A stretch of DNA of 64,000 nucleotides from Patescibacteria group bacterium (GCA_041671365.1 JBAZBP010000002.1:65052-129051); one strand, 5' to 3'; positions 45,405 through 47,149 are shown, counted from the stretch's first letter. The notes: generated by a model not told the origin, from the letters alone. Numbers and translations: made by a program.

Positions 45405-46369
45405 TTATTTTCCTTCACGGCGCCGATACTTTTCGTTCTCGACGCTTTCTCCAAGGACTAAAAGATAAATTTACCCGCGAAGTCGACCCGAACTCCGGTA
45501 GTTTAAGCGTGCTGGACGGTCGAACCGTGGCCTTAAAAGATCTGACAGAAAAAATTAACACCGGATCGCTGTTTGTTAAAAAAAGAATGGTAATTATCGA
45601 AAATATTTTTAAAAATAAAAGTGATAAAATTTTTACAGAATTAAGCGATTATTTAAAAAAATTTTCCGGCAGCGAAGACAATATTATTATCTTTCGGGAA
45701 GAGGAAGCGAACACTAAAGATAAACCCTCAAAGGTGTCAGCCAAAAAGTTATCAAATTTCTTAAGCCAGCAACCATATTCCCAAGAATTTTCAGTTCTAA
45801 CCGGCGGCCAATTGCTAGCCTTCGTTAAAAAAGAGATTAATAGTTATAACCGAGAAATTGGACCGACCGCGGCCTCGCTGCTCATTAACTTAACAGACGG
45901 AGATTTATGGTTATTGTCAGGCGCCATAAAAAAATTAGCTTTTCACACCGATCAAAAAATTATCACGATTGAGGACGTTAAGGAAATGGTTGCCGGTTCT
46001 TACGATGAAAATATTTTCGGATTAACAGACGCCTTAAGCGCTAAAAATAAAAAATTAGCCATTACTCTATTAGAAGAACAATATGCCGCCGGGTTAAGCG
46101 ACGAATATCTGATTACTATGCTTACTCGTCAATTTAAAATTTTGTTACAAATCCGCGAAGCACTTAATCAAAAAATGAATATCTCCGATATTCCCGGCTA
46201 TCTCAAGCTTCATCCTTATATTGTTAAGAAGGGTTCTCTTCAGGCCAAAAATTTTACCGCCTTAACCCTAAAAAATTACCTAAATCATTTAATCAATTTA
46301 GATTTTTTAAATAAAACCAGTCCAATAAATATCAAAACCGAACTAACATTGTTTATTTCCGGACTATAA
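45401..46369 (+). CDS. holA: DNA polymerase III delta subunit
   Basis: The length, the MIIFLHGADTF start and the helical C-terminal pattern fit HolA. Confidence 0.7.
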   Translation: MIIFLHGADTFRSRRFLQGLKDKFTREVDPNSGSLSVLDGRTVALKDLTEKINTGSLFVKKRMVIIENIFKNKSDKIFTELSDYLKKFSGSEDNIIIFREEEANTKDKPSKVSAKKLSNFLSQQPYSQEFSVLTGGQLLAFVKKEINSYNREIGPTAASLLINLTDGDLWLLSGAIKKLAFHTDQKIITIEDVKEMVAGSYDENIFGLTDALSAKNKKLAITLLEEQYAAGLSDEYLITMLTRQFKILLQIREALNQKMNISDIPGYLKLHPYIVKKGSLQAKNFTALTLKNYLNHLINLDFLNKTSPINIKTELTLFISGL

Positions 46370-46449
46370 TCTCTTGCCTTTTTATTTATTATTTGTTATA
46401 GTCTGGGCAGAATTTTATTTTTTAATTTATAAAATTTTATCTAAAAATC

Positions 46450-46523
46450 GGGCAATTAGCTCAGTTGGTTAGAGCGCAACACTGATAATGTTGAGGTCGG
46501 TGGTTCGAGTCCACCATTGCCCA
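46450..46523 (+). tRNA. tRNA-Ile(GAU)
   Basis: Cloverleaf with anticodon loop cuGAUaa. Confidence 0.9.
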
Positions 46524-46557
46524 CTTTATTCGTCTGACAATAGATTAATAATATTAT

Positions 46558-46630
46558 AGCGGGGTAGAGCAGTTGGCAGCTCGCTAGGCCCATAACCTAG
46601 AGGTCGTCGGTTCGAATCCGACCCCCGCAA
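46558..46630 (+). tRNA. tRNA-Met(CAU), initiator-like
   Basis: Close to E. coli tRNA-fMet (GCGGGGU.GAGCAG...GGUCGUCGGUUCGAAUCCGACCCCCGCAA). It has a 1:72 mismatch (A:A) and the anticodon loop ccCAUaa, which has C at position 33. Confidence 0.8.
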
Positions 46631-46654
46631 CTAGTTTAACAATAGAATTTTCAT

Positions 46655-46973
46655 GCCTCGGTAGCTCAGTGGTAGAGCAAAGGACTGATTTTCGGTCCGC
46701 TTCATGGAAACATGGAGATGAAAATCGGGTGAATTCGGGGAAGCCTAAGGCCGCTGGTAGCGGCTATGGTAATCCCGAGCCAAGCCTTAATTGGGATAAA
46801 AAATTAAGGAAGGCGTAGAGACTAGCGGGTGAGCCCAACAATAACCCCGCCTAAGAGCGCCCGACTCCGTACTTAAGAGTATTAAGCGGAGATGAGATAG
46901 TCCAATCCTTGGGGAAACTCAAGCCAAAACAAGGAAAATCCTTGTGTCGTCAGTTCGATTCTGACCCGGGGCA
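46655..46973 (+). tRNA. tRNA-Phe(GAA) interrupted by a group I intron (exons 46655-46686 and 46934-46973)
   Basis: The joined exons give GCCUCGGUAGCUCAGUGGUAGAGCAAAGGACU|GAAAAUCCUUGUGUCGUCAGUUCGAUUCUGACCCGGGGCA, which resembles E. coli tRNA-Phe. Confidence 0.85.
46687..46933 (+). ncRNA. Group I intron (IC3-like, 247 nt, no ORF)
   Basis: AAUUCGGGGAAGCCUAAGG...UAUGGUAAUCCCGAGCCAAGCC and GGAAGGCGUAGAGACUAGCGGG...CCUAAG match the Azoarcus/cyanobacterial tRNA intron core. P1 pairs exon GGACU with intron GGUCC, with a U:G at the splice site. The intron ends in G. Confidence 0.85.
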
Positions 46974-47035
46974 CAAAAGTAAAAAACAAAATTAAATCTA
47001 TATTATACAGCCCTAACCGGGTTTAATTTTTATAA

Positions 47036-47110
47036 CGGGGTGTGGCCCAGTTGGTCTAAGGCGTCTGGTTTGGGACCAGAAGATCGAGAGTTCAAATCTC
47101 TCCACCCCGA
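47036..47110 (+). tRNA. tRNA-Pro(UGG)
   Basis: Cloverleaf with anticodon loop uuUGGga. Confidence 0.85.
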
Positions 47111-47149
47111 CAAAAAATAGGATCTTAACGATCCTATTTTTATTAATTT

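Follow-up and report, generated by a model that had tools for sequence, protein, structure and literature searches.

At positions 46655-46973 of the 64-kb stretch of DNA analyzed here (the window; features lie on its plus strand unless stated otherwise), the anticodon loop of a tRNA-Phe gene is interrupted by an insert. The locus raises the question of what this insert is, how an intact tRNA could be obtained from such a gene, and whether the arrangement is new. A preliminary description had proposed an IC3-type group I intron and had regarded both the host tRNA and the site of insertion as unusual. Here, we delimit the intron, compare it with its relatives at other loci and with its empty site, assign its helices and its subgroup, and weigh the ways in which it might be removed and might have spread.

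A group I intron splits the tRNA-Phe gene

The sequence at 46687-46933 is a real group I intron, located between U33 and G34 of tRNA-Phe(GAA). The 5' exon (46655-46686; GCCTCGGTAGCTCAGTGGTAGAGCAAAGGACT) comprises tRNA positions 1-33 and ends with C32 and U33, and the 3' exon (46934-46973; GAAAATCCTTGTGTCGTCAGTTCGATTCTGACCCGGGGCA) runs from G34, A35, and A36 to A73, with CCA not being encoded. The intron is 247 nt long and ends with a G at position 46933; its extent was derived from the Rfam match, from mapping of U(-1) together with a terminal G, and from alignments to empty sites. The Rfam covariance model RF00028 (Intron_gpI) matches positions 46677-46924 (plus strand) with 76.9 bits (E = 8.5e-18), compared with a gathering score of 50, and this match spans model positions 1-253 of 253. 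When the exons are joined (72 nt), they form a canonical cloverleaf with a GAA anticodon that matches uninterrupted tRNA-Phe genes. ARAGORN calls the joined sequence tRNA-Phe(GAA), counting 73 bases, which is one more than the sum of exon 1 and exon 2, and in its intron mode recovers the split gene with the same 247-nt intron. The ORF list has no entry of more than 49 aa overlapping the intron. The preliminary description had placed an ORF-less group I intron after U33, and its exon coordinates, insert length, and terminal G all agree with these results.

Several insertion registers would give an identical mature tRNA-Phe sequence. Of the eight anticodon-loop positions tested, loop position 2 (33/34) is the only one that combines U(-1) with a terminal G, and the same position is likewise the sole one with this combination in 24 other tRNA-Phe loci among the matches listed. 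Other splice registers, which would alter the identity of the tRNA, were rejected; the one at loop position 5, for example, would give a GAU (Ile) anticodon and lacks a terminal G.

The split gene is missed by ARAGORN with default settings and by the Rfam tRNA model, neither of which makes a call between 46632 and 47035. For annotation, this means that standard tRNA finders overlook the gene, that the genome would then seem to lack tRNA-Phe, and that completeness estimates would drop. As had been noted before, the window appears to hold no further tRNA-Phe: ARAGORN and the Rfam tRNA model call no second gene in the 64 kb, and the split gene is plausibly the only tRNA-Phe gene of the organism.

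Empty sites and gene neighborhood

Intron-less alleles were sought by scanning metagenome contigs for 35 exact bases across the U33-G34 junction, which yielded at least 120 contigs. In 33 of these, the uninterrupted tRNA-Phe matches the joined exons at 72 of 72 positions, and among the matches listed, 62 of 120 contigs share the gene order Ile-Met-Phe-Pro. Alignments of syntenic intron-less contigs to the window break at 46688 and resume at 46934, so the boundaries of the intron are fixed independently of its own features. In some relatives, the tRNA-Phe locus carries the intron; in many others, it does not and represents a natural empty site. The presence of both alleles at a syntenic locus provides material for the study of intron gain and loss.

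The tRNA cluster to which the gene belongs (46450-47141) comprises tRNA-Ile(GAT) at 46450-46524, tRNA-Met(CAT) at 46558-46631, the split tRNA-Phe, and tRNA-Pro(TGG) at 47036-47111. Promoter-like sites are found at 46343-46402, just upstream of the cluster, at a frequency not above chance expectation. Directly 3' of tRNA-Pro, a 12-bp hairpin is followed by a T run (47113-47141). Terminator-like sites near the cluster number three versus 1.3 expected, which is not above chance; the hairpin at 47113-47141 is nevertheless likely to be an intrinsic terminator of the Ile-Met-Phe-Pro cluster. The four tRNAs would make up a single transcription unit.

Homologous introns and covariation

Relatives of the intron were collected with a motif scan (AGAGACTA-N(25-45)-AGCGYCC-N(14-44)-ATGAKATAGTCC) over one genome per bacterial or archaeal species, which gave at least 120 loci, and their host tRNAs were mapped with ARAGORN in combination with the U(-1)/terminal-G rule. 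Three main classes emerge among the matches listed: the host is tRNA-Phe(GAA), interrupted at loop position 2, in 24 of 120; it is tRNA-Asn(GTT), at loop position 4, in 29 of 120, and tRNA-Gln(CTG), at loop position 3 and having C at position -1, in 15 of 120. The hosts of the tRNA-Phe introns are mostly labeled Patescibacteria (Saccharibacteria, Yanofskybacteria, Taylorbacteria, Harrisonbacteria, Sungiibacteriota, Paceibacterota, and Parcubacteria). The chromosome with the split gene is itself most likely Patescibacteria/CPR-like; the Rfam search shows no rRNA in the window. The closest relative among the matches listed, L111 (OW818634.1; 895,742 bp, a metagenome assembly), carries an intron that is 88% identical to that of the window, and its flanking polA, murD-like, and holA genes are syntenic with those of the window.

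For the analysis of covariation, the window intron, 17 of the genome loci, and a published Doudnabacteria intron (n = 19) were aligned with plain MAFFT. The window intron aligns over its full length with the other 18 and shares their helices. Over 69 base pairs, 96.1% of the cells are paired, versus 81.0% after shuffling of columns and 34-49% with the partners slid by one to three columns, and none of 500 shuffles reaches the observed pairing score. Both sides change in 40 of the 69 pairs, with compensatory changes in P1, P10, P2, P3, P6a, P7.1, P8, and P9. The P3-P9 core, including the P3/P7 pseudoknot, is supported by this covariation. The changes in P1 and P10 follow two variants of the tRNA-Phe anticodon arm, in which GGACU|GAAAAU is paired with the guide AUUUUCGGUCC and GCCCU|GAAGAG with the guide CUCUUYGGGGC; the intron has thus co-evolved with its host tRNA.

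Several features of individual loci were recorded along the way. In five of the Phe 33/34 introns (L023, L033, L062, L078, and L091), reading of the alignment suggests that two hairpins replace P7.1; in one example, AGAGACTA is followed by UAUCCCGAAAGGGAGUA and then by a second stem. One intron (L088) has a large insertion and is 439 nt long. In a Parcubacteria MAG, a tRNA-Phe intron locus adjoins a sequence (L078:4332-4641, minus strand of the locus) that ARAGORN calls tRNA-Thr(GGT), with a 215-nt insert at approximately 36/37; this insert may belong with the tRNA-Thr insertions that Nakagawa et al. (2026; PMC13011429) mention as "divergent group I introns". Three loci with a Patescibacteria-like tRNA-Phe intron (L044, L011, and L057) are titled "uncultured Gammaproteobacteria" or "Bdellovibrionales", and one of them (L044) is syntenic to the window; these titles are probably binning or labeling errors in public MAGs.

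The tRNA-Gln(CTG) introns (e.g., the core at L007:3193-3279, and L029, L039, L040, L043, L046, and L051) come mostly from MAGs of Gammaproteobacteria and Woeseiaceae. For 15 of them, the sole consistent mapping places the intron after C34, with C at position -1 and a terminal G ("Gln.3Cg"), and five further Gln loci have U at position -1 but C as the last intron base. No P1 was obvious by eye for the tRNA-Gln introns. The C(-1) class, in the portion of Williams (2020; 10.1101/2020.01.27.920355) used here, comprises Leu.3Cg only.

Secondary structure of the intron

All helices from P1 to P10 can be placed on the intron and the exon ends. P1 is formed by exon GGACU (46682-46686) and intron GGUCC (46694-46698), and the wobble pair U46686:G46694 marks the 5' splice site. 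Two of its pairs change on both sides, and the U:G pair at the splice site occurs in 19/19 introns, in keeping with the P1 of the preliminary description. P10 is read from the complementarity between AUUUUC (46688-46693) and GAAAAU at the start of the 3' exon (46934-46939). Of the five P10 pairs tested, the one with loop position 37 covaries, being C-G in 12 introns and U-A in seven. AUUUUC lies directly 5' of the P1 strand GGUCC and is complementary to the start of the 3' exon, so that one continuous guide (46688-46698) faces both exon ends and forms both P1 and P10.

P2 (46701-46706/46711-46716) is a hairpin with a GAAA loop (46707-46710), and all six of its pairs change on both sides. P3 (46725-46731/46858-46864; 3' strand CGCCCGA) is 100% paired in the alignment, with two covarying pairs. 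P4 (46735-46740/46773-46778) encloses P5 and P5a (46750-46755/46759-46764). The strands of P5, CCUAAG (46744-46749) and UAUGG (46765-46769), read as a canonical 11-nt tetraloop-receptor motif, which, by analogy with Azoarcus, would dock a tetraloop. P6 (46779-46781/46812-46814) is continued by P6a (46785-46792/46802-46809), in which eight of eight pairs covary.

P7, the guanosine-binding helix of group I introns, consists of GACUA (46820-46824) and UAGUC (46898-46902); it makes a pseudoknot with P3 and is invariant in 19/19 introns. Between P7 and the 3' strand of P3 (P3'), there is an extra hairpin, P7.1 (46825-46829/46846-46850), which is 100% paired, with covariation in four of five pairs, and whose 16-nt loop (UGAGCCCAACAAUAAC) contains the conserved motif GAGCCCAACAAUAA. 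The P8 hairpin (46865-46891; stem 46865-46869/46887-46891) likewise shows covariation in four of five pairs. P9 (46908-46913/46918-46923), a hairpin with a GAAA loop (46914-46917), is found in seven of the 19 aligned introns, and four of its pairs covary. An unconstrained minimum-free-energy fold recovers P2, P3, P4, P5, P5a, P6, P6a, P7.1, and P8, with a z-score of -3.47 relative to dinucleotide shuffles.

The three core strings quoted in the preliminary description are located at 46732-46750, 46765-46786, and 46808-46829. It had also quoted a second CCUAAG as a core element, which did not hold up: this string (46849-46854) is found between P7.1 and P3', and the closest relatives do not conserve it. 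The same string was considered as a P8 receptor and rejected, as it precedes P3' instead of being part of P8, as the receptor is in Azoarcus, and is not conserved.

A further complementarity was observed between the 3' tail of the intron plus G34 (ACAAG|G, 46929-46934) and CCUUGU (46940-46945) in the 3' exon, the latter including four of the five bases of the 3' strand of the anticodon stem. Such a helix would imitate part of the anticodon stem as long as the stem's 5' strand sits in P1. It was not retained as a robust feature, the mean longest helix in 25 tRNA-Phe introns being 4.88 bp versus 3.93 bp in shuffled sequences; in the closest relative, L111, this helix is only 4 bp long.

Subgroup assignment

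The Azoarcus intron has GAAA loops in L2 and L9 and an 11-nt receptor motif in P5. Reading the window intron for Azoarcus-type contacts, in which a GAAA L9 has its receptor in P5 and a GAAA L2 has its receptor in P8, shows that GAAA L2, GAAA L9, and the CCUAAG/UAUGG motif of P5 are present and that P8 lacks a receptor motif. Moreover, the core strings AAUUCGGGGAAGCCUAAG, UAUGGUAAUCCCGAGCCAAGC, and GAAGGCGUAGAGACUAG closely resemble the Azoarcus sequence in the Williams alignment, and in a rough neighbor-joining tree, the clade of introns with P7.1 adjoins the IC3 clade. These likenesses speak for a classical IC3 tRNA intron, i.e., for the same subgroup as the introns in Azoarcus tRNA-Ile and cyanobacterial tRNA-Leu. 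Classical IC3 introns (Azoarcus tRNA-Ile CAU, Anabaena/Nostoc tRNA-Leu UAA, and cyanobacterial tRNA-fMet) also reside in the anticodon loop, at 33/34 in the case of fMet, and the strings of their P3-P4-P6-P7 core are similar to those of the window intron.

Other features separate the window intron from this subgroup. The covariation-supported P7.1 (46825-46850) sits between P7 and P3', where some relatives appear to have two hairpins, whereas in the Williams alignment, the P7.1 columns are empty for all classical IC3 rows. Classical IC3 introns have a P8 receptor, whereas P8 of the window intron is without the CCUAAG/UAUGG motif, and their P9 extensions are larger. J8/7 is AUGAGAU in the window intron versus AAGGGAU or AAGGCAU in the IC3 rows. 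Over 175 shared columns, the identity of the window intron to five IC3 representatives is 47-53%, versus 59-67% for the nearest four tRNA introns of the P7.1 type and 55% for a fifth, Mga42.Leu.1Ug, and in the neighbor-joining tree, rough as it is, the window intron groups with the P7.1-type introns, separate from the IC3 clade. As for the literature, Nakagawa et al. (2026; PMC13011429) placed nearly all Patescibacteria tRNA introns in IA and not a single one in IC.

We therefore consider it unlikely, judging from these sequence features, that the window intron is of the classical IC3 type, and of the "IC3-type" label in the preliminary description, the resemblance of several core strings to Azoarcus stands, while the presence of P7.1, the identity values, and the IA assignment in the literature go against the label as such. 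By the same features, the intron is assigned to a P7.1-type family that is common both in viral contigs and in the tRNAs of Patescibacteria (Asn 35/36, Phe 33/34, and others). In the scheme of Michel and Westhof from 1990, additional helices located between P7 and P3' (P7.1/P7.2) are reportedly a trait of subgroup IA; there is one such helix in the window intron and, by alignment reading, apparently two in the five Phe 33/34 relatives mentioned previously.

Probable splicing of the tRNA-Phe precursor

Taken as a group I intron of the P7.1-type family at position 33/34 of tRNA-Phe(GAA), the intron is probably spliced by the standard two-step pathway. The pre-tRNA, which is probably part of an Ile-Met-Phe-Pro transcript, would fold into a P1-P9 ribozyme core, in which the guide AUUUUC-GGUCC (46688-46698) would form P1 and P10 by pairing continuously with GGACU|GAAAAU at the two exon ends. 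Free guanosine would then attack after U46686, held in the U:G wobble. In step two, the terminal G46933 would occupy the guanosine site in P7 while P10 aligns the 3' exon, and ligation of the exons would restore the anticodon loop CU-GAA-AA. By analogy with relatives that self-splice, the window intron would be expected to do so as well. With no other tRNA-Phe in the window and a single tRNA-Phe gene in each Patescibacteria row examined in the tRNA-count table of Nakagawa et al. (2026; PMC13011429), splicing may be essential for the supply of tRNA-Phe.

It could be argued that the intron is a decaying, splicing-dead element in a tRNA-Phe pseudogene and that a functional tRNA-Phe is encoded elsewhere. 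The sequence in view is 64 kb of the genome, and intron-less alleles of exactly the same tRNA are widespread in related organisms, both of which leave room for this idea. Decay is, however, hard to reconcile with a locus in which all core helices are intact, with compensatory changes across 19 species, and in which a 6-bp P10 persists along with the U:G wobble and the terminal G. The 72/72 identity of the exons to intron-less, functional-looking genes argues for purifying selection. In addition, the Patescibacteria rows examined in that tRNA-count table show one tRNA-Phe gene each, including the row for the genome with the tRNA-Phe intron. We regard a dead intron as very improbable.

Somewhat less remote is the idea that the intron is real but depends on a protein helper, such as a maturase or an RNA chaperone, or is removed in vivo by other means than its own ribozyme activity; proteins are required in vivo by some group I introns, the peripheral elements of the window intron are small, and many of its relatives have no P9. 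Yet the intron has no ORF, its guide sequence and the whole of its catalytic core are conserved among the 19 aligned introns, and a tRNA-Asn 35/36 relative that shares the P7.1 loop motif self-splices in vitro with GTP alone. We give these routes a low probability and favor two-step splicing by the intron itself.

Viral relatives and possible mobility

A motif scan of IMG/VR viral contigs for a core made up of AGAGACUA, P7.1, AGCGYCC, and AUGAKAUAGUCC returned at least 120 contigs (L122-L241; e.g., L170:8700-8781, L155, and L225). Of 124 viral-contig matches listed, 117 lie outside tRNA gene calls, and seven that were inspected lie in non-tRNA sequence. The viral-contig introns have a P7.1 like that of the window, often with an AAUAA-containing 3' side, and some have an identical loop, GUGAGUCCCAACAAUAA. 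Conservation of this loop suggests that it may be engaged in a tertiary contact. A blastn search (distant mode) with the window intron against 50,697 GenBank phage records gave no match, and the link to viruses hence comes solely from the IMG/VR motif scan.

These relatives bring up the idea that the P7.1-type family may still be mobile and, with no homing endonuclease involved, pass between viral genomes and tRNA genes in bacteria with small genomes; such movement may take place by, e.g., reverse splicing or through recombination involving spliced copies. If true, it would explain why some syntenic relatives have an interrupted tRNA-Phe locus and many others an empty one. Alternatively, the intron might be kept as an RNA-level control of the sole supply of tRNA-Phe in a reduced genome, and Nakagawa et al. 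(2026; PMC13011429) have speculated on RNA-level control by Patescibacteria tRNA introns in general. Both ideas are speculative, and we hold out only a slight chance that one or the other applies here.

Comparison with published introns

The preliminary description had considered a tRNA-Phe host with an insertion at 33/34 to be unusual, a view that the literature and the motif scan do not sustain. Position 33/34 is the usual insertion site in tRNA-fMet (Nakagawa et al. 2026; PMC13011429), a site that also defines the class fMet.2Ug of Williams (2020; 10.1101/2020.01.27.920355). Phe 33/34 introns have been published as well: the seed alignment of Williams holds Mba55.Phe.2Ug, a tRNA-Phe intron at 33/34, and Table 1 of Nakagawa et al. 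(mSystems) lists a Phe(GAA) 33/34 intron in Doudnabacteria GCA_016699995.1. Together with the 24 of 120 matches listed, this shows that interrupted tRNA-Phe genes of this class are already published and are common in Patescibacteria-like small-genome bacteria. The window intron is a member of this published class, Phe.2Ug or Phe(GAA) 33/34, and nothing in this locus alters existing knowledge.

The intron shares with Mba55.Phe.2Ug and the Doudnabacteria Phe intron the host tRNA, the site, U(-1), the terminal G, the order of the helices, and the lack of an ORF, and the P7.1 loop motif GAG(U)CCCAACAAUAA is common to the window and the published Phe 33/34 introns. The window intron and the Mba55.Phe.2Ug seed come from different species and are 65% identical over shared columns; they cluster together. 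Within the class, the clade of the window intron has the GGACU|GAAAAU anticodon arm and has kept P9, whereas many other members have GCCCU|GAAGAG and no P9.

Precise, GTP-dependent self-splicing in vitro has been reported for introns in tRNA-Asn (35/36) and tRNA-Asp (35/36) (Nakagawa et al. 2026; PMC13011429). Experimental evidence for splicing thus covers these 35/36 relatives, in addition to the classical introns. The self-splicing tRNA-Asn(GUU) 35/36 intron of GCA_016700035.1 has a P7.1 loop (GUGAGCCCAACAAUAA) identical to that of the window intron and the same P3' and J8/7 strings (AGCGCCC and AUGAGAUAGUCC), with 65% identity over shared columns. It differs from the window intron in its host tRNA and insertion site and, hence, in its guide sequence.
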